64,000 nt of DNA from contig OZ245842.1 of NCBI GenBank assembly GCA_965228895.1, positions 3,264,001-3,328,000 on the forward strand, given 5' to 3'. The position numbers were made by a program, and so were the translations under genes. Below are positions 14,272 through 30,647 of the stretch, one piece after another. The notes beneath the pieces are model-generated. The model was not told where the DNA came from. It saw only the letters and a list, made by a program, of their open reading frames with translations, and did not search any database. Positions within the stretch are counted from its first letter, which is position 1; each line of letters opens with the position of its first letter. Source of the stretch: Alphaproteobacteria bacterium (GTDB taxonomy: Bacteria; Pseudomonadota; Alphaproteobacteria; SP197).

Positions 14272-14358
14272 CCCCCTAACACGATCGAGCCTGTTTTTTG
14301 ACGCCTCTCGCACTTTGATGGATGATCACACCATCCAGCACCGGGCGCCTTCACCAAC

Positions 14359-15519
14359 ATGTCGATCGGCCGTTTTCTCGTCGCGTTTGCCCTTTCCCTT
14401 GTCTTCGTGTCGGCGGTTGTGCGCGCCGAAAGCGGCGTTAACGACGAGCGTATCCTGTTCGGCCAATCGGCCGCGCTCGAAGGACCGGCCGCCGCACTCG
14501 GTCGGGGCATGCAGACCGGCATTCTCGCCGCGTTCAACCAGGCAAACCTGCGTGGCGGCGTCAACGGCCGCCTGTTGGAGCTCGTCACCTATGACGATGG
14601 CTACGAACCCGAGCAGGCGATCGCCAACGTCGACCGCCTGATCGATCACGACGACGTCTTCGCCCTGATCGGCGAGGTCGGCACGCCGACATCGAGCGCC
14701 GTGCAGCCGATCGCCACCCAGGCCGGCATTCCGTTTCTGGCGCCCTTTACCGGCGCCGCCTTCTTGCGCGATCCCGCCCTCGACAACGTCGTCAACGTGC
14801 GCGCGTCCTATGATCAGGAGGCCGAGGCCTGGATCGCCCATCTGACCGAGGAACGCGACCTCACCCGCATCGCCATTCTCTATCAGGACGACTCCTTCGG
14901 GCGCGCCGGGCTCGAAGGCGTTCGCCAGGCACTCGCCGCGCGCGGCATGACGCTGGTCGCCGAAGGCACCTACATGCGCAACACGACGGCGGTCAAACGC
15001 GCGCTGCTGGCGATCCGCAAGGAAGATCCCGAGGCCATCGTGATCGTCGGCGCCTACGAACCGACCGCCGCGTTCATCAAGCTTGCGCAGGACATTGGCC
15101 TCGACCCTGTCTTCGTCGCCATCTCGTTTGTCGGCAGCAAGGCGCTCGCCGATGCGCTCGGCGAAGACGGCGAAGGCGTTGTCGTCACCCAGGTCGTGCC
15201 TCTGCCCGACGACACGTCACTGCCGCTGGTCGCCGACTACAATGCAGCGCTCGCCGCGCTCGATCCGCAGCTTGATCCAGGCTTCGTCTCGCTTGAAGGC
15301 TATATTGCCGGACGTCTGGTGATTGCCGCGCTTGAAGCCATGGGGCCGGACGTCACCCGGCAGGGCCTGTTGACCACCATCCAGGAGCTCGGCGCCTTCG
15401 ACCTGGATGGTCTGGCGATGGAGTTTGGCCCCGAGGACAACCAGGGCATGGACGAGGTGTTCTTCACCGTCCTGGACGGCAACGGCAACTTCCATGCCGT
15501 TGCCAATGCCGGTGACTGA
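14359..15519 (+). CDS. Periplasmic substrate-binding protein (LivJ-like type I)
   Basis: Signal peptide; GGVNGR..EL..YDDGYEP, VGTPT, RASY. Confidence 0.85.
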   Translation: MSIGRFLVAFALSLVFVSAVVRAESGVNDERILFGQSAALEGPAAALGRGMQTGILAAFNQANLRGGVNGRLLELVTYDDGYEPEQAIANVDRLIDHDDVFALIGEVGTPTSSAVQPIATQAGIPFLAPFTGAAFLRDPALDNVVNVRASYDQEAEAWIAHLTEERDLTRIAILYQDDSFGRAGLEGVRQALAARGMTLVAEGTYMRNTTAVKRALLAIRKEDPEAIVIVGAYEPTAAFIKLAQDIGLDPVFVAISFVGSKALADALGEDGEGVVVTQVVPLPDDTSLPLVADYNAALAALDPQLDPGFVSLEGYIAGRLVIAALEAMGPDVTRQGLLTTIQELGAFDLDGLAMEFGPEDNQGMDEVFFTVLDGNGNFHAVANAGD

Positions 15520-15523
15520 ACCC

Positions 15524-18436
15524 ATGGCCGACGACGCCAGGGCGCCCGCCACCAGAGTCCTCGGCATTCGTGTCAAACTCCTCCTCGCCTTCTTCGCGCT
15601 CGCCGGCCTGACCGTCATCGCCTGCGCCGTCGCCTGGTACGCCTTCGTCACCATTGACAGGGCGGTATCTCAGGTGACCGACGACAGCATGCCGGGCATG
15701 GTCGCGGCCCTGGCGTTGGCCAACTCGGCCAGCGAGGTCGCGGCGGCGGCGCCGTCGATCCAGGCGGCCGAGGATCGCGACGAGCTTGCCGCCCAGGAGG
15801 CGGCGCTCGAAAAGGCGCTCGAGCGATTCCTCGAGCTCTCGGCCACGATCGATGACCACATCACCGACACTGATCAGCGCGCCGAACTCGACACGCTGGC
15901 CAGCGACCTCGTCGTTGAGCTGACGACACTGCGTCAAGCCGTCGATCGGCGCCTCGACCTGGAGCTTCAGCGCAAGGCAGCCAATGCCGCGATGCTCCTC
16001 GCCCACAGCGGCTTCCTGGAGACTCTCGAACCGCTGGTCGATGATGCGGTCTACGATCTCGTGGTGTCCGGTGAAACCGTGATGAGTGAGAACTCATCGG
16101 CGATCACCAGCCTGGTCGATGACGGTGTTAGCCGGATTGATCGGCTGTTGACCATCAACGCCACCGCCAACCTCGCCGCCGGTCTGATGGGCGAGGCGAT
16201 CAGTGGTGACAATCCCGTGCTGCTCCAACCGCTGAAGGAGCGTTTTGTCTCCGCAGCGCTCACCATCGAACGTAACCTCTCTCAATTGCCCGATGACGAG
16301 ACCACGAGCCACCTGCAACGCGCGATTGACGCCCTCCTGGCACCCGGCCGCGGTGATGACAGCCTGTTCAGCGTCACGGCCAACAGCGCACACACCAGTG
16401 CCAACCTGCAACGCCATCACGACGACCTGCTGCTCGTTTTGACACCGATGATCGACGATGCGGCCTTCGCCTTGGTGATGAGCGCCGAGCGGGTAACATC
16501 GAACAGCCAGGATTCGATCACCGGCTTGATCGAAGGCGGCGTCAACACACTCGCTGTCCTCTTGACGTTGCGAGCCGAGGGCAATCTGACGGCGAGCCTG
16601 TTGAGTGAGGCCGCCGGCGCCACGTCACCCAGTCTTCTGCGCCCGCTTGCCGAGCGGTTCACCGCCGGCCAAGCCCGCATGACCGACCTCCTCGACGACC
16701 TGCCCGACGATACCGCCGCCAACCGCATGCGCGAGGTGTCGCAGCGGCTCCTTGGTTTCGGCGCGGGGCCGAACGCGGTCTTTGCCTTGCGCCAGGGCGA
16801 GCTTGAATGGATCGACGCCGGATTGGCGGCACTTGGCGCCAGCCGCGATCTTTCGTTGGAATTGGGTGATCAAACTGCCGCTCTTGTCGCCGCCGCCGAA
16901 CAGGAAAGTGCCGACACCGCATCATCGACACAACGCGTGATCGATACCAGCCAGCTCGTCATGCTGGTCATCATTCTGATCAGCATCGCCGGCGCCGCGC
17001 TCGTTATGTACCGCTACGTCAACCCGCGTGTGATCCGGCCGGTCGAAGACATCACCACGGCCATGACCGACCTGGCCGGCGGTGATACTTCCGTCGATAT
17101 ACCCGGACGCGAACGCGATGATGAGCTCGGCCGCATGGCCCAGGCGCTTGGCGTCTTCCGCGACACCGCAATCGCCGTCCAAAAGGCCAATCTGCGTGAA
17201 ATAGAAACCGCGCGCCGACGCCTGGCCGACGCTATCGAGAGCATCTCGGAAGGCTTCACGCTCTATGACGCCAACGACTGCCTGGTCGTGTCCAATAAAC
17301 AATACCAGGAGCTTCTCTATCCCGGCATGACCGAGCGGTTTGAACCCGGCATGTCGTTCGAAGCGATCCTGCGCCGCGCGATCAGCCACGGCTACGTCAA
17401 AGACGCCGGGGGACGCGAAGAAGCGTGGATCGCAGAGCGCCTGGCGCATCACCGGAATCCCGGCCCGCCCCACGTGCAACAGCGCCAGGACGGGCGGTAC
17501 ATCATGGTCAGCGAACGCCGCACGGAAGAAGGCGGCACCGTCGCCGTCTACTCCGACATCACCGAACTCAAGCAGCGCGAAACCCAGCTTGCCCAGAAGT
17601 CGAGCGAGCTGGAGCAGCTCGCCGGCCAACTCGCCAAGTACCTGTCGCCCCAGGTTTATGAGTCCATCTTCACCGGACGCCAGGAGGTCAAGGTCGAGAG
17701 TCAGCGCAAGAAACTGACCGTCTTCTTTTCCGATATCGCCGACTTCACCGAGACCACCGAGAAACTCGAGTCCGAAGACCTCACCCTGCTGCTCAACGAA
17801 TATCTCACCGAAATGTCGCGCATCGCTCTGAACCACGGCGCGACCATCGACAAGTATGTCGGCGATGCCATTGTCATCTTCTTCGGTGACCCCGAAACGC
17901 GCGGCGTCCAGGAAGACGCGCTGGCTTGCGTCGACATGGCCATCGAGATGCGCCAGCGCATGACCGAACTGCAGGCACGGTGGCGCTCGTCCGGTGTTGA
18001 GAAACCGCTCGCATGCCGCTTCGGCATCAACACCGGCTACTGCACCGTCGGCAATTTCGGCAGCGAGGCTCGCATGGACTACACCATCATCGGTGCCGGC
18101 GTGAACCTGGCGTCACGACTGGAGTCAGCTGCCACACCGGGCGAGATCGTCATCTCCTACGAGACTCATGCCTGGATCAAGGGCCGCATTCATTGCGAAG
18201 CGCGCGAGCCCATCACGGTTAAGGGCGTCAGCGGTCCGGTCGCGACCTACCGGGTAATCGATACCTTCGAACGTTTGGATGAGATCGGCGGTGTCGTGCG
18301 CGAAGAACAACCCAATCTGCGCCTCGACATGAACGTCACCGCCATGTCGGAAGCCGAACGCACCGCCGCCGAAGATGCCCTGCGCCAAGCCCTCGCCCGC
18401 CTCGACGGCGACGACGCCAAACGCGACGACAGTTAG
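15524..18436 (+). CDS. Membrane-bound adenylate cyclase: helical periplasmic sensor, HAMP, PAS, class III cyclase
   Basis: Two TMs; HAMP DELGRMAQAL; PAS; FSDIADFT, DKYVGDA, YTIIG..VNLASRLE; start may be 15506. Confidence 0.85.
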   Translation: MADDARAPATRVLGIRVKLLLAFFALAGLTVIACAVAWYAFVTIDRAVSQVTDDSMPGMVAALALANSASEVAAAAPSIQAAEDRDELAAQEAALEKALERFLELSATIDDHITDTDQRAELDTLASDLVVELTTLRQAVDRRLDLELQRKAANAAMLLAHSGFLETLEPLVDDAVYDLVVSGETVMSENSSAITSLVDDGVSRIDRLLTINATANLAAGLMGEAISGDNPVLLQPLKERFVSAALTIERNLSQLPDDETTSHLQRAIDALLAPGRGDDSLFSVTANSAHTSANLQRHHDDLLLVLTPMIDDAAFALVMSAERVTSNSQDSITGLIEGGVNTLAVLLTLRAEGNLTASLLSEAAGATSPSLLRPLAERFTAGQARMTDLLDDLPDDTAANRMREVSQRLLGFGAGPNAVFALRQGELEWIDAGLAALGASRDLSLELGDQTAALVAAAEQESADTASSTQRVIDTSQLVMLVIILISIAGAALVMYRYVNPRVIRPVEDITTAMTDLAGGDTSVDIPGRERDDELGRMAQALGVFRDTAIAVQKANLREIETARRRLADAIESISEGFTLYDANDCLVVSNKQYQELLYPGMTERFEPGMSFEAILRRAISHGYVKDAGGREEAWIAERLAHHRNPGPPHVQQRQDGRYIMVSERRTEEGGTVAVYSDITELKQRETQLAQKSSELEQLAGQLAKYLSPQVYESIFTGRQEVKVESQRKKLTVFFSDIADFTETTEKLESEDLTLLLNEYLTEMSRIALNHGATIDKYVGDAIVIFFGDPETRGVQEDALACVDMAIEMRQRMTELQARWRSSGVEKPLACRFGINTGYCTVGNFGSEARMDYTIIGAGVNLASRLESAATPGEIVISYETHAWIKGRIHCEAREPITVKGVSGPVATYRVIDTFERLDEIGGVVREEQPNLRLDMNVTAMSEAERTAAEDALRQALARLDGDDAKRDDS

Positions 18437-18458
18437 GCTTCCCTTTGCCGGTGCCCGG

Positions 18459-18911
18459 TTACTCCGCCACTAGGTCTTCGCACGACAGCACGAGTTCCTC
18501 GATCGCGACGTCGTTGGTCATGGCGCTAAGTTCGGGGCCGCGATAGGCCGTCGGGCGGGCGCGCACCAGTTTCCACGTCATCGCGATCGTCTGGCGATCC
18601 TCGCTCTTCAACTGAATGGTGACATCACGGGCTGCGTCGGGATGGCCGGCGCGCGCCTGATCGATCCATTCGTAGAACCCGAGCGAACCGATGACGCCGC
18701 GCTTCAGTGTGATGTCCGGCACCTTGGCCAGGCCGCTGATCTTGACCGGCAAGTTCGTCATGGCGTTGCCGGCGCGGTACTCGATGACCTCAACCTCCAA
18801 ACCCAAGCCCTCAACTTCGGAAAAACCCGCTTCCAAGGCCGCTGTATCGCCGCCGCCGATGTCGACCTCGAAGTTGAAGCGGCTATAGGGCCGCTCGCGC
18901 AATACCGCCAT
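18459..18911 (-). CDS. T4 gp19-type / eCIS tail tube protein
   Basis: PYSRFNFEV, GFSEVEGL..EVEVIEYRAG, ITLKRG, W.L..A.P..Y.GP.L.A..NDVAIEELVL; strong RBS GGGGAGAGG. Confidence 0.9.
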   Translation of the reverse strand: MAVLRERPYSRFNFEVDIGGGDTAALEAGFSEVEGLGLEVEVIEYRAGNAMTNLPVKISGLAKVPDITLKRGVIGSLGFYEWIDQARAGHPDAARDVTIQLKSEDRQTIAMTWKLVRARPTAYRGPELSAMTNDVAIEELVLSCEDLVAE

Positions 18912-18943
18912 CGTTCCTCTCCCCTTACCTGTTTCCCCACTGC

Positions 18944-19870
18944 CTAAAGCCAGACAAAGCGCTCATAACAAAGCTCGATTTCCTCAAAACCCAGTCCGTC
19001 ACCGTCCAGGGCGTCGAAGGCCGGACCCTGCCATCGGCGCGGCCAGCAGTTGACGAAGGTCCAGTGGTTGACCGGCTTGGCACCCGCGCCAGCCAGTTGA
19101 AAAAGATCGACCTGGCGCCGGTCCCAGGTGCCGTCGACGATCTTCTGGCGCCACAGATAAAGATCCTTCGAACGGCTTATGGCGCGCCGCAGCACCAGAC
19201 TGTCATAGGTCAACGCGCCAGGCTTGCCACCGCCATCGCCTTCCGTCATCGCGTGTTCGCTGCCCATGGCCGATACCTGACAAAACCCGATCTCCTGATC
19301 GCCGATCACGACAAGGAAATGCCGGTTGCTCAGAGGCTGGGTGAAAATCGACCCACCACGACCATCATCCGGCGGCGCCGGTCGCGTTGGTTCGAAGCGA
19401 ATGACAGCATCGTTTGCCGTTTCGAGTTTCGGATGGCTGCCCGGCGGATCGCCAGTGGCGGTGATCACAACGCGGCTGTGTGCCGCGACAGCGTTCAGGA
19501 AATGCTGCGTGGCGCGATCAAACCGGTCGTGGCTGTCGATGATCTCGGTCCGCCGGCCGAACAGCGCGTCGGCCTCGTCAAAGAAAAGAATGTTGTCGCC
19601 ATCGGCGGTTTCATCGAACAGGCGCGTCAGATGCTTTTCCGTCGATGCCGCTCCGTCGGCCGTGATGCGTGCAAGATCAATCCGCTCCAGGCGCTTGCCA
19701 TGCAGTTTGGCAAGCTGTGTCGCGACGAGCTGACGGTCGCCCGGCGCACCGCCGGCCAGCAGCACGCGTAAGCCCTTGCGAGGACCGTAGAGACTCATGA
19801 CCGTTGCGGCGATGTCGCGCAGACGCCGCCGATCGAAGTCTATGGGGACTGTTTCGCGCCGAGTGGGCAT
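18944..19870 (-). CDS. Fusion of degenerate eCIS-type AAA+ domain and gp19-type tail tube domain
   Basis: N-half RIDL..TEKHL..ILFFDEADALFGRRTEI.DSHDR; C-half F.V.IG..GF.QVS, LVLRRAI..DLYLWR, W.F.NCWP..W.GP.FDA..EEIELCYE. Confidence 0.8.
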   Translation of the reverse strand: MPTRRETVPIDFDRRRLRDIAATVMSLYGPRKGLRVLLAGGAPGDRQLVATQLAKLHGKRLERIDLARITADGAASTEKHLTRLFDETADGDNILFFDEADALFGRRTEIIDSHDRFDRATQHFLNAVAAHSRVVITATGDPPGSHPKLETANDAVIRFEPTRPAPPDDGRGGSIFTQPLSNRHFLVVIGDQEIGFCQVSAMGSEHAMTEGDGGGKPGALTYDSLVLRRAISRSKDLYLWRQKIVDGTWDRRQVDLFQLAGAGAKPVNHWTFVNCWPRRWQGPAFDALDGDGLGFEEIELCYERFVWL

Positions 19871-19943
19871 CCGGCACCGCCACCATGTTCAGCGCTCGCG
19901 CGCATTGGATCACGGCGATGGGCCAAAAGCAACGCGGGGACGG

Positions 19944-20540
19944 TTACTCGGCGTCTTGGCGGGCGTTGATGACGGGTTTGATGTCGCGACGCAGACCTTG
20001 CACGGCCGACGGGTTGATCGGCCTGAGCGACGCTTCGACGAACCGCTCGAACTGGGTTTTCATACCCGCTTCGCGGCCATCCTTGCCTTTCTTGCTGCGC
20101 GTCGGCGCCTCGCCGGTCTCCGCAGCGAAAATGTCATAGAGATCGCCGACGAAGTCACGCCGCGCCTGCTGCGGATTGCTGCCGCGGTTCGGCAGAAAGT
20201 CGACCGCACCATCAGCCGATAACGCCAAGAGATCGAGATCGTCGGGACCGACCATACGCAGTTGCTGCGAGCTCATCGCATTCAAGCGGCGCAACTGCTT
20301 GGCCAGTTTGCTGGCAAGGCTTGCTATACGGCTGAACTGTTCCTGACGCTGCTTTTCGCCGTGGTTGCGATCGGCGATGATCGTCAGGCAATAGGCCATC
20401 GCGGCGTCCGTCAACAGGTCGACGGAACTTTCCGAAAGATAGGGTCTACCGAGAGTGCGTCCAATTCGTGTGAGGTCCAGGTCCGTATAGGGCCATGTCT
20501 CACTGGTACGCCATAACGGCAGGTCGGTTTCCTCGTTCAT
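19944..20540 (-). CDS. Hypothetical protein, first gene of putative tube operon
   Basis: 198-aa ORF on the same strand as the tube genes, 73 nt from the next gene; no family recognised. Confidence 0.6.
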   Translation of the reverse strand: MNEETDLPLWRTSETWPYTDLDLTRIGRTLGRPYLSESSVDLLTDAAMAYCLTIIADRNHGEKQRQEQFSRIASLASKLAKQLRRLNAMSSQQLRMVGPDDLDLLALSADGAVDFLPNRGSNPQQARRDFVGDLYDIFAAETGEAPTRSKKGKDGREAGMKTQFERFVEASLRPINPSAVQGLRRDIKPVINARQDAE

Positions 20541-20622
20541 TGGGTCAACAACCCGCCGGTTGCGATCGCATCATCTATCCTACGCAGGTCGACTTCGCGC
20601 AGGCTGTGATGGTCGTCGCCAA

Positions 20623-20637
20623 TTAAGGCTTTGTTAA
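20623..20637. promoter_or_regulatory. Putative CtrA-binding box
   Basis: Exact TTAA-ggctttg-TTAA (TTAA-N7-TTAA) about 80 nt upstream of ATG 20540. Confidence 0.55.
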
Positions 20638-20852
20638 ACTTAGACATCCTCGGGAACCATCTCACCGGACAACACAAACCACCGGATGACACGCTCGTCT
20701 CCCGCGGGCCCGCCAACGCGGCGGATCCATTAAGACTATCGATTTGACGGAACCGCCGCCACGGCACACAAGTGGTAATCCAGATTCCCATACGGCACGA
20801 AACCGTTGAGTCGCAAGGGTTAGCGGACGAGCCTTAAGCGAGGTGCGCGCAC

Positions 20853-20900: not shown

Positions 20901-21136
20901 AGCCCAGGGCCATCATCGTAGAGGGCGCAGAAGCACAGCCGATCTCCTCATCCAGACCAGGGCTGCTTGAGACAGGAAGGCAAGCGGATCCCGAGTTTTT
21001 TGTCACGGTCGCCAAGGTCGTATTGACCACAACCAAGCGTGACAAGAGCAGAAATTTTGCTACCGTAGATCCAAGTTGGCGCGACGATCGACATCACTGC
21101 CGAACCGTACTTTGAAGACATAGGGGAGGATTTTTG

Positions 21137-21685
21137 ATGGTGAAGTCTGCCTGTCTTGTTTCCCTGGTGATGTTTGGATTTGTCACGATAGCGCGGGCCG
21201 ATTCTCTCCCCGATCCGGAGGATGTATTGGCCGATGTCGGAGGCGACGCGGTCAAGATCGAGCAGTATCGCCAAGCGTTGCGCAGTCCTGATGCGAATGA
21301 GCGCTTGGCAGCCTTCGTTGCCATGGCTGGGGTCGACCACCCCGTTGTCAGACAGATTGCCTACGAAGAAGGGTTCGCCAGCAGCGATCTGCAGTTGCGG
21401 TCCCTGGCGCTACGTTACAGATTTTTCGATCGGGAAACATTCCGAGTCCGTTATCTCGACGGCAATTCGCAACCTGTACTGATAACGATTGTTGATCCCA
21501 ATTGGACCAACGGCGACTTTAAAGCATACAGAGGCGCGAGCAGGCCCGGCAAAGTCCAAGGTCTATCCGTCGAGTTTGAAACCGGCTGCACAGTCCTCCT
21601 AGAACTCAACGACGAAGATCGTCTTGTCGGCACGGAGATCTGCAACGAGACTCGGCGTGACGTTGAAGTCGACATTCGCGGCTAA
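21137..21685 (+). CDS. Exported hypothetical protein (HEAT-like helices then beta region)
   Basis: GGGGAGG RBS; signal peptide ending ARA; LRSPDANERLAA. Confidence 0.65.
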   Translation: MVKSACLVSLVMFGFVTIARADSLPDPEDVLADVGGDAVKIEQYRQALRSPDANERLAAFVAMAGVDHPVVRQIAYEEGFASSDLQLRSLALRYRFFDRETFRVRYLDGNSQPVLITIVDPNWTNGDFKAYRGASRPGKVQGLSVEFETGCTVLLELNDEDRLVGTEICNETRRDVEVDIRG

Positions 21686-21720
21686 GACAAGAACGTCGCC
21701 ATCGACTCATTTAACGCCCG

Positions 21721-22800
21721 TCAGGGGGCGATCACCACCTCGAGTCTGTTGAGTTCGACAAGTTCGCTGTCGTCTGACCATGTGTCGTAGACGACGATCT
21801 TAACTCGTCGTGCTCGTATCGGCGGTTCAAAGGTTACTTCGCGAGTCCCTGCGGTTGGCGACAAGGTAAAGCTTGTCACTGAAGACCACGACCTCTCGCC
21901 CTCCGAAGAAACTGTTCGGAACACCTCGACGGTTCGGGGGTGGGCAACCGCCTCACCTTCAAGCGTATGGAAAATAAACCCTGCGACGTTCGTAACTTCG
22001 TTATTCGGCATCTGAAGGACCAAATCGACCGGCCAGCTAATGGCCTTGGCGCGCCACTGACCCGCTTCGTCCAGCGGCGCGACAAGGTGATCGACTGTGT
22101 CATCGGGACTTAGCGGCAACGCTGACGTACGCTCAACCTGGATGCCGTCGGCACCGACGGTAGGCGCGCTGGGGACCTGCGGCGCTTCGCCACTATTCTC
22201 CCACTCCCAGCGCACGAGATAAATGGCCTTGTCGAACCGCAGCGCCTTGGGTGGCTCTCCTTCACCACCCAACTCCATCATGATACCGACAATCGTATTG
22301 CCCTGAACAATGGCCGAACCGCTGTGACCTTCACTGACCGCCCATTCACCGGTTTCGCGCAGATAGATGTATGAGCCGTCGGTATCGGTTATCTGTGCGG
22401 GTCTAAGCGATACGCTCCCGTCTTCAAACAGATAGCGCAGTTGCACCTCACCGCTGCCTTCAGCCAGCACGCCTGATAGTTGGTCGCCATCGGGAAGATC
22501 GTCACCGCAAGCACTCTCGATCGATCCATTGACGCCAAACAGGCTCAAATCAAATCCTAGATCTCGTATTTCCCAGGCCTGCCCCGTTGTCAGTTCACCG
22601 CCATCGCCAACAAGGGAACCGAATCCGTTCGAACCCTCGATCAAGTGCGTTGGCGCCAAGGCAAAACACGCCCCGCCACGCTTGAACAGAATTGCCTGCC
22701 CTTCCTTTGAACCGGCACTTAGGTAAGCCTGAGACGCCGAGACATCATTTGGCAGAACCCCGGCACATGTTAGCGCCACGACTGCCAATGCGAGGCGCAT
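21721..22800 (-). CDS. Secreted trypsin-like serine protease with C-terminal discoidin/galactose-binding-like domain
   Basis: Signal MRLALAVVALTCAG; candidate triad APTHLI / FDLSL / GHSGSAI; C-term TFEPPIRARRVKIVV..W..VELNRLEV. Confidence 0.6.
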   Translation of the reverse strand: MRLALAVVALTCAGVLPNDVSASQAYLSAGSKEGQAILFKRGGACFALAPTHLIEGSNGFGSLVGDGGELTTGQAWEIRDLGFDLSLFGVNGSIESACGDDLPDGDQLSGVLAEGSGEVQLRYLFEDGSVSLRPAQITDTDGSYIYLRETGEWAVSEGHSGSAIVQGNTIVGIMMELGGEGEPPKALRFDKAIYLVRWEWENSGEAPQVPSAPTVGADGIQVERTSALPLSPDDTVDHLVAPLDEAGQWRAKAISWPVDLVLQMPNNEVTNVAGFIFHTLEGEAVAHPRTVEVFRTVSSEGERSWSSVTSFTLSPTAGTREVTFEPPIRARRVKIVVYDTWSDDSELVELNRLEVVIAP

Positions 22801-22924
22801 GACCTGTTTTGGAAGCGGGCTCACTAGGCCGACTCCTGGGAGATATCGACCATATGATAAGTCCTTCACCGGCTGGCCGGCACCGAAATCCGATACGGAC
22901 TCAGATGTCGGAGTGGTTTTTTTG

Positions 22925-23998
22925 TCATCTCTTCGCCGCATCAGCACCTTTCGCACCAGCTGGCTCACTGCCCGTACCAGGCCGGTCATCATCGGCCCGA
23001 CGACTATCTCGCCAATCATGCGCGTCTCTCTTCTCAATTGGCCCGACAACGAGGGCAACGACTGCCGCCAAGCAACCGAGCCAGGAGACAAATGCTAGAA
23101 CGGCGGTCGAGAACGGATTGCCAAGCATCTGCGCTGTCCAGGTAACTTGAAACGGGAAGCGTGTCCCCATGCGCTCAACAATGAGCCTGTCGGAGCACAA
23201 GACGTAGACGACAACCCGCAATCCTTCGAGCTCGGGCGTTTCGAAGCGGAAGAATCCTTGGATTGGATTAGTTTCCTGTTTCTCGATGCCCTCACCATCT
23301 CCATCCGCGGCAGGGCACCTGGCAACATTGTCACCGGACAAAATGACGTTAACCACGTCTCCTGCGATCAAGTCTGTGGAATCGACAAGGAATCGACCAA
23401 CCAGCCCTTTCTGATAAGCCGACATATCGCCACCAATCAGGACGCCTTCGATCCCGGGATCTGGAATCTGCCCTAGGTGGACCCAACCGGATGGATTCAG
23501 GTCAAATCCAATCGTGTGATCCAGGGGTTCGAAAGCCCTTAGAACCCAAGACCGGCGTTCGCCGTCTTGGTGGGATCGGATAACGCCGCTTACGACGACC
23601 TCAAGCGCGCCTTGATTCAAGCGGCGCACAAAAGCCAGCGATTCCGGAGCAACATCAAGCGCGGCTCCTTGCGGAACACGCAACAGTCTCTCCTGCGCGC
23701 CACACGGAGTTTCAGGCGTCGGCACCAAAGTCGAAGCGACCTCTGCGTTCTCGCGGTCGTAGCAAACCGCAAACCCATCGAGAACGATTGATGAGTCAGC
23801 GTCAAAGCCGTTGATTTCCAGGTATTCAGTTTGAGCATTGACGACGAAGAATGCAGGCTTTCCTGGGAACGCACTGATGAAAACAAACACACCGGCGACC
23901 AGAACACAGCCGGCGAGCAGAACGATCATGACAAGCTGCAGTGGACTTCGTTCAAGCCGCAATCGCGCCCACGTCTCAGTCAGCCATCGTATCAGCAT
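22925..23998 (-). CDS. Hypothetical membrane protein (N- and C-terminal TM, beta-rich core)
   Basis: Long ORF with two hydrophobic segments, 8 nt after upstream stop. Confidence 0.6.
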   Translation of the reverse strand: MLIRWLTETWARLRLERSPLQLVMIVLLAGCVLVAGVFVFISAFPGKPAFFVVNAQTEYLEINGFDADSSIVLDGFAVCYDRENAEVASTLVPTPETPCGAQERLLRVPQGAALDVAPESLAFVRRLNQGALEVVVSGVIRSHQDGERRSWVLRAFEPLDHTIGFDLNPSGWVHLGQIPDPGIEGVLIGGDMSAYQKGLVGRFLVDSTDLIAGDVVNVILSGDNVARCPAADGDGEGIEKQETNPIQGFFRFETPELEGLRVVVYVLCSDRLIVERMGTRFPFQVTWTAQMLGNPFSTAVLAFVSWLGCLAAVVALVVGPIEKRDAHDWRDSRRADDDRPGTGSEPAGAKGADAAKR

Positions 23999-24006
23999 GG
24001 TTTGCT

Positions 24007-24780
24007 CTACTCGGAACCGCGTAGGCTGATCGTGAACGGCTTCGGTGGCTTTGCACTCCCAAACTGTTTGCGAATGACGATACCATCGATGCGGTCGACG
24101 TCTGGGAGTCGACCGCTCAAGTCCACGTTACACACGAAATCGTAGCCCAGCCTCCTGGGGTCTTCGACTTTTGTGCAATCGGATTGTCCGATATTAGCTC
24201 CATTCGCGGACAGCGAAACAGCCGCTGCGCTTGTCTTGGCATTCACCAAAACAACAATTGAATCGGGATCGCGTTCCGCGAAGCTTCCCCATGATGCGAG
24301 AAGAAAGGCCGCGCTGTCGCTATCGCAGTCTTCTTCGACGACGCTTACGGCAACGTCGCTCGGATCAAGAGCCCTGATGTCCTCGGAGTCCGACGATGCT
24401 GCAGCCCAGTTAAGCCTTACAGGATCCGCCACGTCGGCCCCGAGTTGGATTATCGTCGACGCATCGTACTCGCCACTTCGCGACACCACCTCGATGCAAA
24501 GCTGTGCGGACTCCTGCCGTGGTCCCGACAAGATCGTCAAGAGCAAGTCATCCTCAACTGACTGAGACCATTCCGCCATCACGCCGACAACGATTTCGCC
24601 AGCCACCGGCCACACCGGATCAAAATTCTCTTCTATTCCAAACTCACCGTTAACAAGCTGATCGTTGTTAACGAGATTGACCTCGTCAGCGTCGGCGTTG
24701 ACAGATTCCAACGGCAGAGCGACGGCCACCGCAAAAAGTACAATCCTCGCTGAAACTGGAGACAGAACATTCCGACGCAT
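24007..24780 (-). CDS. Exported hypothetical protein
   Basis: GGAGGA RBS; signal peptide ending VNA; acidic, four Cys. Confidence 0.6.
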   Translation of the reverse strand: MRRNVLSPVSARIVLFAVAVALPLESVNADADEVNLVNNDQLVNGEFGIEENFDPVWPVAGEIVVGVMAEWSQSVEDDLLLTILSGPRQESAQLCIEVVSRSGEYDASTIIQLGADVADPVRLNWAAASSDSEDIRALDPSDVAVSVVEEDCDSDSAAFLLASWGSFAERDPDSIVVLVNAKTSAAAVSLSANGANIGQSDCTKVEDPRRLGYDFVCNVDLSGRLPDVDRIDGIVIRKQFGSAKPPKPFTISLRGSE

Positions 24781-24981
24781 AGTAGGTCCTCCCCCAAGCA
24801 TCCGTCGGTCTGCGGGAATGGTACCGCATCAGATACAGAAGACCAAAGGTTGGGCGTTTCGTAGGCCAGATATCTGAGTAACGACCTCATTCGGCAGGGT
24901 TCGCCGATTTCCAGCGACGTCCACAAATACGTCCGATAGTGTTTTATGCCTAATCGGAGGCCATCGCGGGCGGGCGCGGCA

Positions 24982-26013
24982 ATGTCCAAACCGATAGTAA
25001 TCCTAGCGATCGACGGAGGTGGTGTCCGGGGCCTCATCCCTGCGCTGTTGCTTAAGGCATTGGATGTCGAGATCGCGGCAAATGCGGGCACCGCGCAGGT
25101 CGGCGCGAAACCTCTCGGCCGCTACTTCGACCTTATTGCGGGAACATCGACCGGCGCTTTGATCGCCGTCGGCCTCAGTTTCGCGAAGAGCCGACAATCG
25201 GACATTCCTCTCGCGACACCCGAAGAACTGGTTGAATTTTACCGAGAACGTTCAGCACACGCCTTTCGCCGCATTCGCTTTCAGAAAGTGCGGCGCCTCT
25301 GGCGTAGTGAATACAACTACGAACCGTTCGCGTCGGTGCTCGAGGATATTGTCGGTGAACGACGATTGTCCGAAACCGCAACGCCGGTCATTCTTCCTGC
25401 CTACGATGTCCACAACCGCTACGTCCGCTATTTCAACAGCGCCACCGCCGCGACGAGCGAAACAGAAGATTACTACCTGCGCGATGTCCTAAGGGCGACG
25501 ACGGCAGCACCTGTCTATTTCCCCCCGGCACGAATCTCGGCCATTGGCGGAAAGAATGAAGAAGTTTTTGTTGATGGCGGTCTGTTTGCCAACAACCCAT
25601 CGTTATGCGCCTCGACAGAAGCACTGCGCCTGTTCGGCTTTGACCGTCCGCTCATCGTCGTGTCCATGGGTACCGGCCAAGCGAACCAACGATACCCGTT
25701 GCACCGGCTGGAATCATGGGGCGCCTTCAAGTGGCTTGACCCGCGCATGAGAATGCCGCTGATCGATGTCATGATGGACGGACAGATCGACGCGACCCAC
25801 CATCACCTGGACCAAGTCCTCACTGCCGATGAAACATACTTTCGATTTGATCCAGCGCTCGATCCAGGCTTGGCCGCACTCGATGATGCCTCATCAGCGG
25901 TTCTTGAAAAACTCGACGAATTGGCACAGACCTATATCGAGACCCAAAAGGGTCGACTGGAGAGACTGGCCCGCCTGCTTGTCGAACATTCTATTGACCG
26001 CCCTGATCGTTAA
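24982..26013 (+). CDS. Patatin-like phospholipase
   Basis: DGGGVRG, GTSTG nucleophile, AAPVYF, DGG.FANNP. Confidence 0.9.
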   Translation: MSKPIVILAIDGGGVRGLIPALLLKALDVEIAANAGTAQVGAKPLGRYFDLIAGTSTGALIAVGLSFAKSRQSDIPLATPEELVEFYRERSAHAFRRIRFQKVRRLWRSEYNYEPFASVLEDIVGERRLSETATPVILPAYDVHNRYVRYFNSATAATSETEDYYLRDVLRATTAAPVYFPPARISAIGGKNEEVFVDGGLFANNPSLCASTEALRLFGFDRPLIVVSMGTGQANQRYPLHRLESWGAFKWLDPRMRMPLIDVMMDGQIDATHHHLDQVLTADETYFRFDPALDPGLAALDDASSAVLEKLDELAQTYIETQKGRLERLARLLVEHSIDRPDR

Positions 26014-26037
26014 CCATTTGATCGGTGCCGGATGGCG
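25991..26037 (+). repeat. Right copy of imperfect direct repeat (overlaps patatin stop)
   Basis: ctattgaccgccctgatcgttaaccatttgatcggtgccggatggcg. Confidence 0.6.
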
Positions 26038-26053
26038 CTGTGTGACGGCGACA

Positions 26054-26146
26054 CTGTGGGCGGGGCATATCAAGGTCCATGGCGCGCATGATGGCACCGC
26101 CGCGCATGCCTCCGTTCACAACCATCATCATTCTCACGTGCCTTGA
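26054..26146 (+). pseudogene. 3' remnant of a paralog of the His-rich exported protein at 30231
   Basis: LWAGHIKVHGAHDGTAAHASVHNHHHSHVP* versus LAAGHVSVHGAHEATNAHVSVHNYHHSHAP*; no matching 5' part. Confidence 0.7.
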
Positions 26147-26214
26147 TCCTCTTCTCACAGGCCGACGTCTGGTTCGTTCGGCCTAGTCCTTCGTGCTTGG
26201 AATGATGTGCTTTC

Positions 26215-26257
26215 GACCGCCCCGAAGGGTTGCAACCTCCGGGGCGGTCCTTCGTTC
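26215..26257 (+). terminator. Stem-loop, likely intrinsic terminator
   Basis: gaccgccccg-aagggttgcaacctc-cggggcggtc followed by cttcgttc. Confidence 0.5.
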
Positions 26258-26388
26258 GCCGTCGTCGCTCGGCCGTGTTAGCGCAACGGTGGCAGTGGCG
26301 GCGGACGCATGGTCAACCTGATTGTTCGCGCCAGGAACGACTTCCCGCAACGCGCGGCTTAGGATTTGTGAGCCTGCTGGATGCGCTG

Positions 26389-29300
26389 TTAACCCAACGT
26401 GTCCAGCAGCGCTTTCGCCTCGATCAGATCCGGCGTCTCGAAACCTTCGGTAAACCAGCCGTAGATTGGGGCCAGTAGATCGCGGGCCTCATCTTTCTTT
26501 CCCTGGTCCCGCAGCAGACCGGCAAGACCGGTGGCGGCGCGCAACTCTATCGCTTTGGACTCTCGCGAACGCGCTATTTCAATTGCACGTTCGAACGAAG
26601 ATCGTGCCGCATCCGCGTCGGGCTCGTGGCCGGCCAGCATAAGCCAGCCAGCCAACCGGTGCAGCTCGGCCTCGATGGGAAGATCGTTGTCTTTCTCAAA
26701 GTAAGCAAAGGCTGCGGCCATGGCGGTTTTGGACTCTTCCGGTTGGCCAGCGAGCATGTGGGCCTCGGCCTTGAGAGCATGCAGATGCGCGAACCATCGT
26801 TGACTTTTGATGGTCGAAAGTTCCGCGATACCAACATCTATTTCGGACAGCCCATCATCGAAGTCGCCCTGGTGCGCCAAACCCCAACCCAGGAAAACCC
26901 GAGCATAATTGTACCACAGCGGTGTCGCGAGTTCGGTGCAAACGGGAAGTGCACGACGCGCTGCCGCCACGGTCTCGGGGATCCTGCGCATCAAAACGTT
27001 GGTGATGACGCCACCCCAACCCATCGCATAACCGGTTGTGTTACCGTGATCGCGTTCCAGCGCCCAAGCCACTGTCGCGTCCATAGCGTCGATTGCCTGA
27101 TCGGCGTAGCCGAGATAGTAGAGCGACCAGCTCCGGTACATGTTCGCGGCGACCAGCGCATCGTGGCCGTAGCGCAGGGCAAGATCCCTATGGGTCACAG
27201 GATCGTAGTTCTCGACTATCTCGTCAGCACATGCGAGGACGTCTCGAAAGCGCGCGCTGTTGAGCCGCTCCAACGCCTCGACACGCAACGCCACAAGCCT
27301 GGCGTTTTGGTCATTGGCGGCTTCGGTCAGCGCCAGCAGTCGCTCGGCATGCGCGGGCGCTGCGATCGAACGAATGAAAAGCCCGGACCATTGCCCATAG
27401 ATAGCGGCGTACTGCAGCGTCTTGTCATTGAGTTCGTCGCCAAGCGTTTCGGCCAGTTCCGTCGCGGCAACGAATGTCGCCACCGTATCTCCTGCACCAT
27501 AACCATGAGCCGCGATGAGCGCCTGACCGAGGTTGATCAAAAGACGCAGCTCGCGCTCCCTGTTTCCATCATCCGCGGGCATTTGGCGCAGCAGGCGCAG
27601 TGCGTTTTCGAAATGACTAATGGCTTCGCGGTAGGCTGGGCGTGCGACGGCGGCATCGCCGGCGCGCGTCCAATTGTCGATCGCTTTCTCGGTGTCGCCA
27701 GCCTCTTCAGCGTGGTGCGCCAGTATCTCGGGCTGCGCGTCTTCTCGTGCCTCGAGCGCGCTGAGCAGATCCGCGTGGATCGCTTGGCGCCGGCTCTTCA
27801 AGAGACTTTCATAGGCCGCATCGCGCACCAGCGCGTGTTTGAACAGATAGTCCGCCTCAGGCGGCGTACCGCGCCGGAAGACCAGCTCCGCTTCGACTAG
27901 ACCATCCAGCGCCGCCGTCAACGCCTCATCTGACTGCTCGGCAACGGCTGCCAGTGTGCGGTAATCGAAGGCGCGCCCAATGACCGACGCCATCTGCGCG
28001 ACTTCTTTGACGGGCCGCAGGCGATCCAAGCGCGCCATCAGACTGTCATGCAACGTTGCCGGTATCGTGAGCGCGCTCAAGGGGCCAGCCAGTACATAGG
28101 CGCCGTCTTCCTCGCGCAAGGCATCGGACTCCAGGACCGCCTTGGCGATTTCTTCCACGAATAGCGGCACTCCGTCGGTCTTGGACGAAATCTCATCCAA
28201 CACCGCATCAGGCAGCGGCTTGCCGCCGCTGACCCGTGTCGCGATGTCAGCCACCTGGGATCGGCCCAGCCGGTTCAGCATCAGCCGCGTCACAACCGGG
28301 TGGCCGCCAAAACCGTGTTCGAACGTCGGGCGCGCGGTGATCAGGACCAGAACTTGTGATCGCGCGACCGTATCAAGCGCCAGTTCGACCAATTCCAGGG
28401 TCGTCGGGTCGATCCAGTGCGCGTCCTCGATCACGAACAGTACCGGGCGCGCTTTAGCCAGCCCGACCAACTGATCGATCAGGGCCTGCAGCATGCGCGC
28501 GCGCAACTGCTGGGGGCTGAGCCCCAACGCGCCGTAACGTTTCTCGCCATCGAGCCCCAGAAGCGGGGCAAGCAGGGGAACCTGTGCGCCCACATCCGCT
28601 GTGCCCTGTGCCAACAGTGCTTCCAGCTTATCGAGCCGCAACGTCTCGTCGTCACCCGTCTCGAACCCCGCCGCCAGACTCAACTGCTGGATCGTCGGAT
28701 AGAGTGCGCTGTCCGTATGATAGGGCGAGCATTGGTACCGCACTGACGTGTGGTCGTGGTCACGCAGGTCGTCGAACAAAGCTTCGGTGATGCGCGACTT
28801 ACCGATGCCCGCCTCACCGGTCAGCAGAACCATCTGGCCTTCACCGGCGTTGGCCTGGCCCCATCGTTCCATGAGCAACGCCAGTTCCTGGTCGCGCCCG
28901 ACAATCGCGCCCTTGGTCGCCGAGCCGCGCGCCGCGAACCGGCTCTCCAAGGTTCGTTCGCCCAAGACCGCGTAGGCCAGTACGGGCTCGTCCAACCCTT
29001 TCACCGCATGGCGGCCCAGCTCGTCCAGTTCGAACAACCCGCCCAGTAACTCGCTGGTCGCCTCCGCCACAACGATCCGGCCGGGCTCGGCAAGCCCTTG
29101 CAGGCGCGCGGCCAGGTTCGGCGTGTCGCCCACGACCGTTTCCTCGCGTGCCGATCCCTCGCCGATCAAGTCGCCGACTACCACAAGCCCGGTTGCGATG
29201 CCGATCCGCGCCGCCAGCGGCGTGCCGTCCGGCGCACGCAGACCCGCGATTGCGTTCATCACCGCCAGCCCGGCGCGAACCGCCCGTTCGGCCTCGTTCT

Positions 29301-29739
29301 CATGGGCCTGGGGCCAGCCGAAATAGACCAGTGCGCCATCGCCCATGAATTTTGCGACATGTCCATCCAGACGCGTGATCTCGCCGGCGACCGCGTTCTG
29401 AAATCCACGAATCACGTCGCGCATCTCTTCGGGATCAAGCCCCGCCGATAGCGACGTCGAACCGACCAGATCGACGAACATTACGGTCAACTGCCGACGC
29501 TCGGCTCCGGTCGGTTCCGGCGCCTCACCCGCCTTCGGCTGATTGTCCGGCTGTGCGGGCGCATCGCCCAAGGCATTCAGACCGGCGAGGAACTTGCGCC
29601 GCGGCCCCATGGGCAGACCGAGTTCCTTCAGGTCGTCATCGCTAAGGTGCCGCGCCGCGTCCAGATCGATCTCGTTCTCGGCAAACGCCGCAGCGTACTT
29701 GTCGAGCCCCAAGCTCGACAACAACTCACCGATATCCAT
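26389..29739 (-). CDS. SAM + class III cyclase + STAND AAA ATPase + TPR-like protein
   Basis: SAM (LGLDKYAAAFAENEID..LKELGLPMG), ERRQLTVMFVDLVGST, GEAGIGKS, EDAHW, FKHALVRDAAY, YGWFTEGF. Confidence 0.9.
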   Translation of the reverse strand: MDIGELLSSLGLDKYAAAFAENEIDLDAARHLSDDDLKELGLPMGPRRKFLAGLNALGDAPAQPDNQPKAGEAPEPTGAERRQLTVMFVDLVGSTSLSAGLDPEEMRDVIRGFQNAVAGEITRLDGHVAKFMGDGALVYFGWPQAHENEAERAVRAGLAVMNAIAGLRAPDGTPLAARIGIATGLVVVGDLIGEGSAREETVVGDTPNLAARLQGLAEPGRIVVAEATSELLGGLFELDELGRHAVKGLDEPVLAYAVLGERTLESRFAARGSATKGAIVGRDQELALLMERWGQANAGEGQMVLLTGEAGIGKSRITEALFDDLRDHDHTSVRYQCSPYHTDSALYPTIQQLSLAAGFETGDDETLRLDKLEALLAQGTADVGAQVPLLAPLLGLDGEKRYGALGLSPQQLRARMLQALIDQLVGLAKARPVLFVIEDAHWIDPTTLELVELALDTVARSQVLVLITARPTFEHGFGGHPVVTRLMLNRLGRSQVADIATRVSGGKPLPDAVLDEISSKTDGVPLFVEEIAKAVLESDALREEDGAYVLAGPLSALTIPATLHDSLMARLDRLRPVKEVAQMASVIGRAFDYRTLAAVAEQSDEALTAALDGLVEAELVFRRGTPPEADYLFKHALVRDAAYESLLKSRRQAIHADLLSALEAREDAQPEILAHHAEEAGDTEKAIDNWTRAGDAAVARPAYREAISHFENALRLLRQMPADDGNRERELRLLINLGQALIAAHGYGAGDTVATFVAATELAETLGDELNDKTLQYAAIYGQWSGLFIRSIAAPAHAERLLALTEAANDQNARLVALRVEALERLNSARFRDVLACADEIVENYDPVTHRDLALRYGHDALVAANMYRSWSLYYLGYADQAIDAMDATVAWALERDHGNTTGYAMGWGGVITNVLMRRIPETVAAARRALPVCTELATPLWYNYARVFLGWGLAHQGDFDDGLSEIDVGIAELSTIKSQRWFAHLHALKAEAHMLAGQPEESKTAMAAAFAYFEKDNDLPIEAELHRLAGWLMLAGHEPDADAARSSFERAIEIARSRESKAIELRAATGLAGLLRDQGKKDEARDLLAPIYGWFTEGFETPDLIEAKALLDTLG

Positions 29740-29966
29740 AACGCCGCCTCCCGACAAGACGTCAGCCTAGCATCACACGGACGCCTGCCGGTAACCAGCG
29801 ACCGGACCCAACGGGCACCGCCGTCGAGGATCGGGCCGGCCACCTGCAGTCAACGCCGTGGCCCTTCGCCAACGTTGCTCGACATCCAAATCAGCCAAGG
29901 GTCTGGGAAAAACGCTATCATAACGTGTGGTCATGGACGATCCGGAGATGTCAGCTTTCTCGATAC

Positions 29967-29982
29967 CTAACACTATTTTAAC
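29967..29982. promoter_or_regulatory. One-mismatch CtrA-like box
   Basis: CTAA-cactatt-TTAAC in an AT-rich divergent intergenic region. Confidence 0.3.
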
Positions 29983-30230
29983 GTACATCAAGATCACGAG
30001 AAATTCCTCAATGTCGGCGCAATCTCCACTAAGATAATCTATTTGCAGTTGCTGCGTTCAACTCGGTGGAATGGGTAAGAGTGACTTGGCCGGCGTGTGC
30101 TGTGCATCAATCGATCCGCCTAACCACGGGGCGGCACGCGACTTGGCTGACTGACGCCTCAACAGCCAAGTGGCCGACAGAAAACTGGGAAGTTGGGAAA
30201 CACCCGCAACGTGTGTTGAGGATGGAATCT

Positions 30231-30605
30231 ATGAAACTCGCACTCAGGAAATTTGTGGCGCCGGCTGCCGTCGCAGCGGCATTCGTGGTGGTTGCGGCCC
30301 AGACCAGCCCGGTCTTGGCCCAGGGCGACGCACAGCGTATGAACCGGTCTGACGCGCGGTTCTTTGTAACGGGTTCGGACCCCGAATCGTTGCTGGTGCA
30401 TAGCACGGCCCCGACACACAACACCGTATGCTCAAGCGCGCATGGTTCCGGCGACGTGACCGTGAAATACGACGACAACACGACAACGCTTTCGCTCGGC
30501 CATTGCGCTTTGCTGGCGGCCGGCCACGTCAGCGTTCATGGCGCACACGAAGCGACCAATGCGCACGTCTCGGTTCACAACTATCATCATTCCCACGCTC
30601 CCTGA
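30231..30605 (+). CDS. Small exported His-rich protein
   Basis: Signal peptide ending VLA; two Cys; HVSVH twice and HHSH at the C-terminus. Confidence 0.7.
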   Translation: MKLALRKFVAPAAVAAAFVVVAAQTSPVLAQGDAQRMNRSDARFFVTGSDPESLLVHSTAPTHNTVCSSAHGSGDVTVKYDDNTTTLSLGHCALLAAGHVSVHGAHEATNAHVSVHNYHHSHAP

Positions 30606-30647
30606 TCGTCGTCGACGGCTTCACGACGTCTAGAGCCAAGAATCACC

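Follow-up and report, generated by a model that had tools for sequence, protein, structure and literature searches.

A three-gene operon combining extracellular contractile injection system tube proteins with a pseudo-AAA domain in an alphaproteobacterium

The operon and its tube domains

The DNA analysed here, called the window throughout, is a stretch of 64,000 nucleotides from an alphaproteobacterium (assembly GCA_965228895.1, contig OZ245842.1, positions 3,264,001 to 3,328,000). Its minus strand carries a unit of three genes: orf198 (19944-20540, 198 aa), which is the first gene of the unit; a gene of 308 codons (18944-19870), starting 73 nt past orf198, in which an AAA-type domain is fused to a tube domain of the kind used by extracellular contractile injection systems (eCISs); and, 32 nt past the fusion gene, the gene of a second tube paralogue, the partner tube or tube B (18459-18911, 150 aa). 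The genome containing the window (G000; 5.53 Mb in 1 contig, rated 98.7% complete) was compared with two sister species (G001 and G002), with fetched loci (L numbers) and with protein clusters (P numbers).

The original prediction, which was made from the sequence of the window, described two adjacent genes 32 nt apart, one encoding a gp19-type tube and the other an eCIS-type AAA domain joined by a linker to a second tube domain. The two open reading frames (ORFs) lie at 18459-18911 and 18944-19870, the tube profile PF06841 matched both and the AAA profile PF00004 matched the fusion, so that this part of the description proved accurate. As an account of the segment 18459-20540 as a two-gene module it was correct for both genes, but the third gene, orf198, had been overlooked.

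The fusion protein can be divided into a pseudo-AAA domain consisting of an α/β core only (residues 1-165, 19376-19870), a Pro/Gly/Ala-rich linker (residues 166-177, 19340-19375), whose length and sequence vary across the family, and tube domain A (residues 178-308, 18947-19339), all on the minus strand. An AlphaFold2 (AF2) model built with a 17-row family alignment (predicted local distance difference test score, pLDDT, 77.0; predicted template modelling score, pTM, 0.70) contained two folded domains, in agreement with the predicted layout: an N-terminal α/β half with five strands (34-39, 60-65, 93-98, 134-139 and 155-158) and a C-terminal β-rich domain with a long hairpin, separated by a low-confidence linker (residues 166-181, pLDDT <50) that is disordered in the model. 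The spacer between the stop codon of the fusion gene and the start of the tube B gene (18912-18943, minus strand, 32 nt as read from the sequence) corresponds to 25 nt in a related metagenomic locus (L118), and the tube B gene is preceded by a strong sequence resembling a ribosome-binding site, AAGGGGAGAGG.

Tube B matched PF06841 with an E-value of 2.5e-32 (111.9 bits, cut-off 28.2). Tube A (fusion residues 183-305) matched the same profile at 1.5e-21, which is above the curated cut-off and bears out the gp19 domain proposed for the C-terminal half of the fusion. These two are the only PF06841 domains in the G000 genome. With the TIGR02241 model (cut-off 62.4) tube B scored above the threshold (100.3 bits) and the fusion below it (54.7 bits), and neither tube passed the NCBIfam CIS1_fam and CIS5_fam equivalog models (20.7-81.3 bits against cut-offs of 220-260). 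Tube A and tube B share 25% identity, and are therefore old paralogues. Among sequences in the PDB, tube B matched contractile injection system (CIS) tubes (9r9h_B, All3324, AlgoCIS and Pvc1), and the profile of the fusion, at positions ~170-312, matched the AlgoCIS tube 7adz (2.5e-25), Anabaena All3324 (7.2e-23) and Pvc1 (6e-22). When the model of the fusion was compared with PDB structures by Foldseek, the tube half found Pvc1, Afp1, PlPVC1 and AlgoCIS chains with a probability of 1.00.

The AAA half of the fusion

Residues 48-150 of the fusion matched PF00004 (2.1e-07, 31.9 bits, cut-off 21.2), and the match ended at position 119 of the 131 positions of the profile. In the model strand β5 (155-158) leads directly into the linker, and the C-terminal helical lid is absent. 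Foldseek assigned the N-terminal domain to the AAA cores of p97, Cdc48 and FtsH (probability 1.00), and a profile search of PDB sequences matched fusion positions 36-141 to VCP-like ATPases (8e-21).

The state of the catalytic motifs was read from an alignment of 25 family members, in which the eCIS ATPase of Geomonas paludis (L009) served as the reference. The P-loop, GPPGTGKT in the reference, reads GGAPGDRQ in the window; pore loop 1 reads DGAASTE in place of KYIGETE, and sensor 1 reads ITATG in place of ILATN. The Walker B segment of the window, ILFFDEADALFGRR (ILFFDE), is kept in the reference too. None of the 25 family members has a GxxGxGK[T/S] P-loop, G-K-T being replaced by G-D-R in nine of them (the window included), and the sensor-1 Asn, lost in the window, is kept in a single member. 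The Walker B DE, by comparison, is kept in 21/25. The window fusion also lacks an RRF-type arginine finger, the arginines of which are present in the eCIS-type AAA proteins L023 and L080. Judged by these motifs, the N-terminal domain is shown to be a pseudo-AAA that cannot act as a working ATPase, and, because the P-loop is missing, it probably does not bind nucleotide either. The earlier view of a dead AAA, which had been based on the losses in Walker A, pore loop, sensor 1 and Arg finger, thus stood but was incomplete, the core being truncated and lid-less as well.

Conservation in the domain is concentrated elsewhere. In the 17-row alignment the invariant columns of the N-terminal domain are L53 and the stretch L95-R107 except R106, where the Walker B strand ends and the pore-loop-2 region begins. 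Across the family the start of the protein (MP.R) and the position of the linker are conserved as well.

The nearest relatives of the N-terminal domain outside the fusions are AAA proteins of ~440-800 aa; in a search of representative sequences, proteins of ~700 aa matched profile positions ~28-165 with their own residues ~450-690. That these relatives are eCIS ATPases, as had been proposed, is exemplified by L009, where a gene for a 450-aa AAA protein follows genes for a CIS_TMP (1e-109) and an eCIS_core protein (1e-29). For comparison, 80 eCIS-type ATPase loci were collected by a scan of genome contigs with the family alignment (pattern LFFDEADA), and no fusion was found among them. Of the 54 loci that measured 15 kb or more, 22 had a tube gene within the flank, as determined with our own hidden Markov model (HMM), and of all 80 loci 28 (HMM) or 26 (tblastn) had one; the other loci may have a tube gene further out. 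In terms of sequence and modelled fold, the N-terminal domain is an α/β core of the eCIS-ATPase type that is cut down and mutated, and it looks like the α/β core of the D2 domain of Pvc15-type ATPases. A tree of the domain (67 rows, with every second eCIS row dropped and 39 kept) had little resolution, since 34 of its 64 forks stayed open, and the two types of fusion may or may not share a single origin.

Distribution, related modules and genomic setting

The fusion gene, followed by the tube gene, was present in all three species of the genus (78% protein identity) and in none of the other 30 of the 33 genomes examined from the order. In a sample of 401 genomes from the class, G000 alone had the fusion; the matches in 11 other genomes were due to a long AAA frame or a separate tube, or to both. 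The operon lies in syntenic segments, which extend over window positions 14296-20790 in G002 and 15188-20825 in G001. Pairwise ratios of nonsynonymous to synonymous substitution rates (dN/dS, NG86 method) between the three species were 0.08-0.15 for tube B, 0.14-0.19 for the whole fusion (dS 0.45-0.96) and 0.06-0.08 for orf198; within the fusion, the N-terminal domain gave 0.19-0.23 and the tube domain 0.07-0.10. All three genes are under purifying selection and are not decaying, the values of 0.06-0.23 lying far from the neutral value of 1.

A full HMM scan of 1.84 billion representatives at 50% identity yielded 31,221 matches, and among the best 150 of these both halves were found in one stretch in 14 clusters (50% identity). 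Both Pfam domains were present in 18 of 120 clusters at 90% identity, among the matches listed. The distant fusions are 25-45% identical to the window protein. The scan of representatives and these low identities indicate that the architecture is rare, but old and diverse. No longer fused forms (540-2000 aa) were found with the tube half as query, which is weak evidence. Metagenomic contigs yielded one locus with the C-terminal alignment, L118 (2.2 kb). In 72,556 plasmids no site covered at least 80% of the fusion, tblastn found no match to it in 50,697 phage records, and viral contigs contained none when searched with P0027 and with the C-terminal alignment as queries. Two doubts that accompanied the original prediction, namely that the fusion might be confined to one assembly and that it might be decaying, are settled by its presence throughout the genus, in the 14 clusters and in L118, and by the substitution ratios.

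The relatives show the same modules in several arrangements. L118 consists of a 5'-truncated fusion, a gap of 25 nt, a gene for a 157-aa tube and then an ORF on the opposite strand. In P0131 (455 aa) the pseudo-AAA, a tube A and a tube-B-like domain form a single chain. In P0027 and P0050 a peptide of the sheath type (..EYLAPGVY.EE..) forms the N-terminus, and after it come an AAA domain without P-loop and a domain of the tube B type; P0024 shares these two domains, in a record without the sheath-type start. Of the 80 eCIS loci, 26 had ORFs with a motif of the EYLAPGVY type; there were 30 such ORFs, of which 29 lay within 3 kb of a tube ORF. Such ORFs sit directly upstream of tube genes, and one that was scanned proved to be a sheath (PF04984 and PF17482). 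In a tree of 79 tube domains, which included 25 tube domains of fusions and 48 sampled eCIS tubes, 22 of the 25 formed one long-stemmed clade (support 100/99) apart from the 48 eCIS tubes. A second clade (100/99) united the tubes following the fusion in the window, G001, G002 and L118 with the C-terminal part of P0131, and also took in the tube domains of P0024, P0027 and P0050. Three arrangements of the modules thus exist, namely AAA-A + B, sheath peptide-AAA-B and AAA-A-B. Because they recur both adjacent and fused, the AAA core, tube A and tube B probably act together in one complex.

A similar but unfused arrangement was found in a metagenome-assembled genome of the Ectothiorhodospiraceae (L070, 8630-11729, plus strand), where genes for a mini-AAA, a gp19 tube, a 219-aa protein of no family and an Amidase_2 protein stand in a row. 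The mini-AAA (206 aa) is lid-less, has a sheath-type N-terminal peptide and keeps GPSGTGKT and ASN; the tube gene (4.9e-38) lies 118 nt downstream. The 3.2 Mb genome, of unstated completeness, contained one tube gene only, and no sheath family was found in it. The L070 tube falls within another eCIS clade (100/99), so the module must be of separate origin. Stand-alone lid-less mini-AAAs of the eCIS type were also noticed in Nitrospira (L062, 9875-10489, plus strand; ~197 aa, without P-loop and with Lys-rich tails) and in Flavisolibacter (L023, 6736-7224, plus strand; ~160 aa, with an altered P-loop). No tube gene was found in the flanks of these two.

The product of orf198 had no match in Pfam, NCBIfam, PHROG or PADLOC. 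It is the most conserved of the three gene products, with 93-95% identity to the two sister species, and its homologues (10 clusters, mean column identity 77%) are 59-62% identical at a depth at which the fusion is 40-45% identical. The AF2 model (pLDDT 71.5) is all-helical; residues 1-15 are disordered (pLDDT <50), yet this N-terminus is conserved. The model matched no PDB fold at E ≤0.001, and the ESM Atlas contained unnamed clusters only. Aligned with the third gene of the L070 module by hhalign, orf198 gave a probability of 0.2. It was found neither in viral contigs, with an alignment as query, nor in the 72,556 plasmids. An orf198 homologue (P0122) and a partial fusion (P0013) come from the same source, and their contigs are both 17,224 bp long, which suggests that they lie on one contig.

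Families of the contractile machinery were searched for in the genomes of the genus. The sheath family PF04984 gave 0 matches in G000, G001 and G002 (the control was positive in 3 of 14 genomes), and VipB/TssC (PF05943), the sheath of type VI secretion systems (T6SS), was found in none of the three (control positive in E. coli). In G000, Baseplate_J (PF04865) and gp25 (PF04965) gave 0 matches with positive controls, PAAR (PF05488) and eCIS_core (PF13699) were not found, and no second eCIS-type ATPase was detected at E ≤1e-20. Pvc16_N (PF14065) gave 0 matches in G000 and CIS_TMP (PF19268) was not found in any of the three genomes; these two models were positive in no control genome, which makes the result weak. 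Measured against the core Pfam set of PMC8213781, the operon falls outside the eCIS class, sheath and baseplate being missing. The architecture is rare and conserved, and has descended from eCIS tube and ATPase parts; the operon is built from such parts and is kept by selection in genomes in which no contractile machinery was found. Its portrayal as an orphan sheath-less tube module was therefore borne out, and its homologues do not always sit inside complete eCIS loci: all three genomes of the genus are sheath-less, and the short locus L118 has the tube gene and then an ORF on the opposite strand.

The absence of sheath, spike and baseplate genes, which the original prediction had reported for the window, held genome-wide for sheath and baseplate but not for the spike. 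At a distance of 243 kb from the operon, outside the window, G000 carries a split VgrG-related hub and spike pair (G000:C1:3525776-3527610; L121 9777-11611, plus strand). The hub is a 375-aa frame (Phage_GPD, 2.7e-12) and the spike is encoded by an overlapping gene (236 aa; Phage_base_V, 5.7e-24); together they cover positions 17-346 and 374-544 of the NCBIfam model VgrG_rel. The pair is preceded by a LysR gene and followed by a gene for a 262-aa retron-like reverse transcriptase (L121 11633-12421, minus strand). Among the 33 genomes of the order the hub is restricted to the genus, as is the tube operon, and it is present in G000 and G001; the dN/dS is 0.26 (hub) and 0.16 (spike). G002 lacks hub, spike and the adjacent reverse transcriptase gene as the result of a clean ~3.2 kb indel at the syntenic site and keeps the tube operon, which is thus independent of the hub and spike cassette. 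Further along L121, after a TPR gene, there is a dispersed repeat of ~92 bp (14575-14668) that occurs at 38 further places in G002 with 78-87% identity and resembles elements of the repetitive extragenic palindrome or miniature inverted-repeat transposable element type.

Upstream of orf198 a conserved leader (20541-20825, minus strand) runs to the synteny break. It contains a 36-codon ORF (20537-20647, minus strand), the stop codon of which overlaps the start codon of orf198 (ATGA) and the region of which is 71-73% identical at the protein level with both sister species. A simple scan of the leader found no sigma-70-like promoter. At the other end, 22 nt separate the operon from the stop codon of a convergent gene for a HAMP-PAS-adenylate/guanylate cyclase (dN/dS 0.08-0.18). 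The cyclase was considered as a regulator of the operon, but this idea was dropped, as the genes are convergent. In G001 (L088 3262-3940) ~680 bp lie between the stop codons of the cyclase and tube genes, and do not align with the 22 nt of the window.

Beyond the leader lies a variable island of lower G+C content (GC; 0.56-0.57 over 20-26 kb, against ~0.62-0.64). The segment 20825-30706 of the window is missing in G001, and 25979-31858 is missing in G002. The island holds several ORFs of no family (21134-24801), a gene for a patatin-like phospholipase (24946-26013), which matched PADLOC models for effectors of cyclic-oligonucleotide-based antiphage signalling systems (CBASS) at 9.1e-68, and a gene for a 1122-aa protein with SAM, cyclase, AAA_16 and TPR domains (26389-29757, minus strand). 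Interpretation of the island as a CBASS locus was dropped; the patatin gene was the only effector-like gene seen, and no CD-NTase search was made.

A possible tube-ring module and its alternatives

The nearest known counterparts of the two tubes are the eCIS tubes Cis1 and Cis5 (Afp1/Afp5, Pvc1/Pvc5), which they resemble in belonging to PF06841, in sequence and fold matches, and in occurring as two diverged paralogues. The window locus differs from eCIS loci in having no sheath, baseplate, spike or terminator, and in that one of its paralogues carries an N-terminal AAA remnant of 165 aa. Hcp, the tube-family protein of the T6SS, can serve as a ring-shaped chaperone or carrier and in some cases is joined to a further domain; where Hcp genes are orphans, the cell has a T6SS that they serve, and Hcp-effector fusions carry a toxin. 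The operon is comparable in that a tube protein, sometimes fused, occurs away from the main machine, as in the orphan hcp/vgrG islands described in the accessible part of PMC13098142, but no T6SS sheath was found here and the fused domain is an N-terminal ATPase remnant, not a toxin. The L070 module shares a lid-less AAA core followed by a gp19 tube gene in a genome in which no sheath was found; it differs in being unfused, in keeping the P-loop, in the clade of its tube and in having a third gene unrelated to orf198.

On the ATPase side, Pvc15 consists, in the portion of PMC11495950 available to us, of N, D1 and D2 domains, D2 having GTGK, DEAD, N597, R608/R609 and a lid, and being the active domain that binds the cargo signal and is tied to the stabilisation and loading of cargo. 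The window domain shares with the D2 of Afp15 and Pvc15 the DEAD-type Walker B, the FGKRS..D.HDRY stretch and the classical-clade AAA fold. Whereas Pvc15 is portrayed there with P-loop, sensor 1, Arg fingers and lid, the window keeps only the D2-like core, fused to a tube. The same excerpted account describes AAA domains that have become structural: p97 D1, which keeps minimal ATPase activity, and NSF D2 stabilise or form the hexamer. These domains and Pvc15 D1 are alike to the window domain in that, as far as that source goes, an AAA fold is kept for architecture or binding and not for hydrolysis. They differ in keeping the lid and a tandem active AAA, while the window domain lacks P-loop and lid, and the genome offers it no active domain as a partner.

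Taken together, these observations lead us to favour, tentatively, the explanation that the stand-alone operon of orf198, the pseudo-AAA-tube A fusion and tube B encodes a selected, non-contractile tube-ring module in which the AAA remnant is a binding layer. By analogy with CIS tubes, tube A and tube B would form hexameric rings or a short non-contractile stack. Six tethered AAA cores would add a layer, outer or axial, that has ceased to use ATP and could serve as a fixed binding platform, through the Walker B strand and the pore-loop-2 stretch (LFFDEADALFGRR..D.HDRY). The layer would then be a static counterpart of the Pvc15-type D2, holding a client peptide at the mouth of the tube. The likeliest client or co-factor would be Orf198, the conserved disordered N-terminus of which could be the bound peptide. 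Candidate cellular roles are a storage or chaperone ring, a secretion adaptor, or defence.

Several observations weigh against this explanation. Four of the 25 family members lack even the Walker B DE, so that the supposed binding surface is not universal, and the window's own genus has a degenerate pore loop 1. The AAA layer may form no ring, since AAA rings are normally held together by lid and nucleotide, which it lacks. The link between orf198 and the operon was seen directly in three species of one genus only, which is thin sampling. The predicted complex of the fusion with Orf198 scored 0.01 (mark 0.32), a value that counts neither way. Finally, the position of the operon at the border of a variable island with a patatin gene fits a defence role equally well.

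Such a role could take the form of anti-phage or anti-tail activity, in which decoy tube subunits, one of them burdened with a bulky dead AAA domain, co-assemble with the tube of an invading contractile-tailed phage, or of a rival's tailocin or CIS produced inside the cell, and poison tail assembly, or act as sensor bait for it. The edge of a lower-GC island, the CBASS-effector-type patatin and the SAM-cyclase-AAA_16-TPR protein in that island, the retron-like reverse transcriptase beside the distant hub and spike cassette, and the Amidase_2 gene near the L070 analogue are all in keeping with this explanation. We nevertheless consider it improbable. PADLOC models matched neither tube nor orf198 and gave only a marginal IetA match for the fusion (E 0.0079); the operon is fixed at one syntenic site in 3/3 species and has native GC, unlike the adjoining island; its tube domains belong to the eCIS type, and tblastn matched the fusion to none of the 50,697 phage records; and two old paralogues with a highly conserved third protein exceed the needs of a decoy. 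Another conceivable arrangement is a distributed sheath-less needle, in which the tube operon would work with the hub and spike genes at 243 kb and neither sheath nor baseplate wedge would take part. It would account for the presence, in the same genome, of a hub (Phage_GPD) and an overlapping spike gene (Phage_base_V) that together span VgrG_rel, for the restriction of the hub to the genus, as of the operon, among the 33 genomes, and for the purifying selection on the pair (0.26 and 0.16). The chances of this arrangement appear slim, given the distance between the loci, the persistence of the operon under the same constraint in G002, which lacks hub, spike and reverse transcriptase, and the failure to find tube-initiator, tape-measure or terminator families, although the latter searches are weak, being positive in no control genome.

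Decay or artefact might explain why the AAA half has lost all catalytic elements except Walker B and why the genome has none of the other eCIS genes. A decayed eCIS remnant is nonetheless very hard to reconcile with frames that are intact in three species at 78% identity, with the dN/dS of the fusion (0.14-0.19 against a dS of 0.45-0.96), and with the recurrence of the same architecture, including the MP.R start and the linker position, at 25-45% identity in 14 clusters; a chimera of assembly or gene calling is equally hard to reconcile with a window lying inside a single-contig genome of 5.53 Mb. The original prediction had also raised modulation of a CIS encoded elsewhere. If the module were an accessory to a complete CIS in the same genome, modulating, capping or loading it, this would explain the eCIS type of the parts, since eCIS loci normally have, by what could be consulted of PMC8213781, at least two tube paralogues and a separate ATPase. 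With neither a PF04984 nor a PF05943 sheath in G000, G001 or G002, and in G000 no gp25, Baseplate_J or PAAR, no Pvc16_N found (no positive control) and no second eCIS-type ATPase at E ≤1e-20, this proposal is contradicted for G000, unless the sheath family is unrecognisable to the Pfam models used, and we regard it as scarcely tenable.

Returning to the tube-ring explanation, a reading that goes further would make the operon the representative of an undescribed class, in which tube rings without sheath or baseplate are crowned by a nucleotide-independent AAA ring that holds Orf198 at or in the lumen, and in which the combination of a lid-less mini-AAA with a tube arose at least twice. We think this possible, if doubtful. 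If true, the fusions would be a Rosetta stone for direct docking of the eCIS ATPase D2 core on the tube.

Among the papers listed by literature searches for this architecture, none deals with a tube-AAA fusion protein, as judged by titles and abstracts. The eCIS core Pfam list names Phage_T4_gp19 and AAA as separate core domains (PMC8213781, in the sections available), and in the accessible text of the eCIS surveys PMC12210884 and PMC6899500, supplements aside, no tube-ATPase fusion is described. The former, in that text, excluded loci without baseplate, tube or sheath-initiator categories, and the latter is presented there as built on full-locus profiles. As far as these partial sources indicate, a CIS usually enters the catalogues only if it has genes for sheath and baseplate, and modules like this operon are invisible to such surveys.

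The operon is conserved and under selection, which argues that tube proteins and an ATPase core can live outside contraction, and the tube parts seem to have taken on a new use. The fusions of the AAA core with tube A, with tube B, and with A and B in one chain can be taken as genetic evidence of direct contact between the D2 core and the tube. This contact bears on cargo loading by ATPases of the Pvc15/Afp15 type and is relevant to engineered delivery by PVC systems. A domain without a P-loop, in which the Walker B/pore-loop-2 stretch is invariant, offers a natural case for ATP-free binding by that surface.

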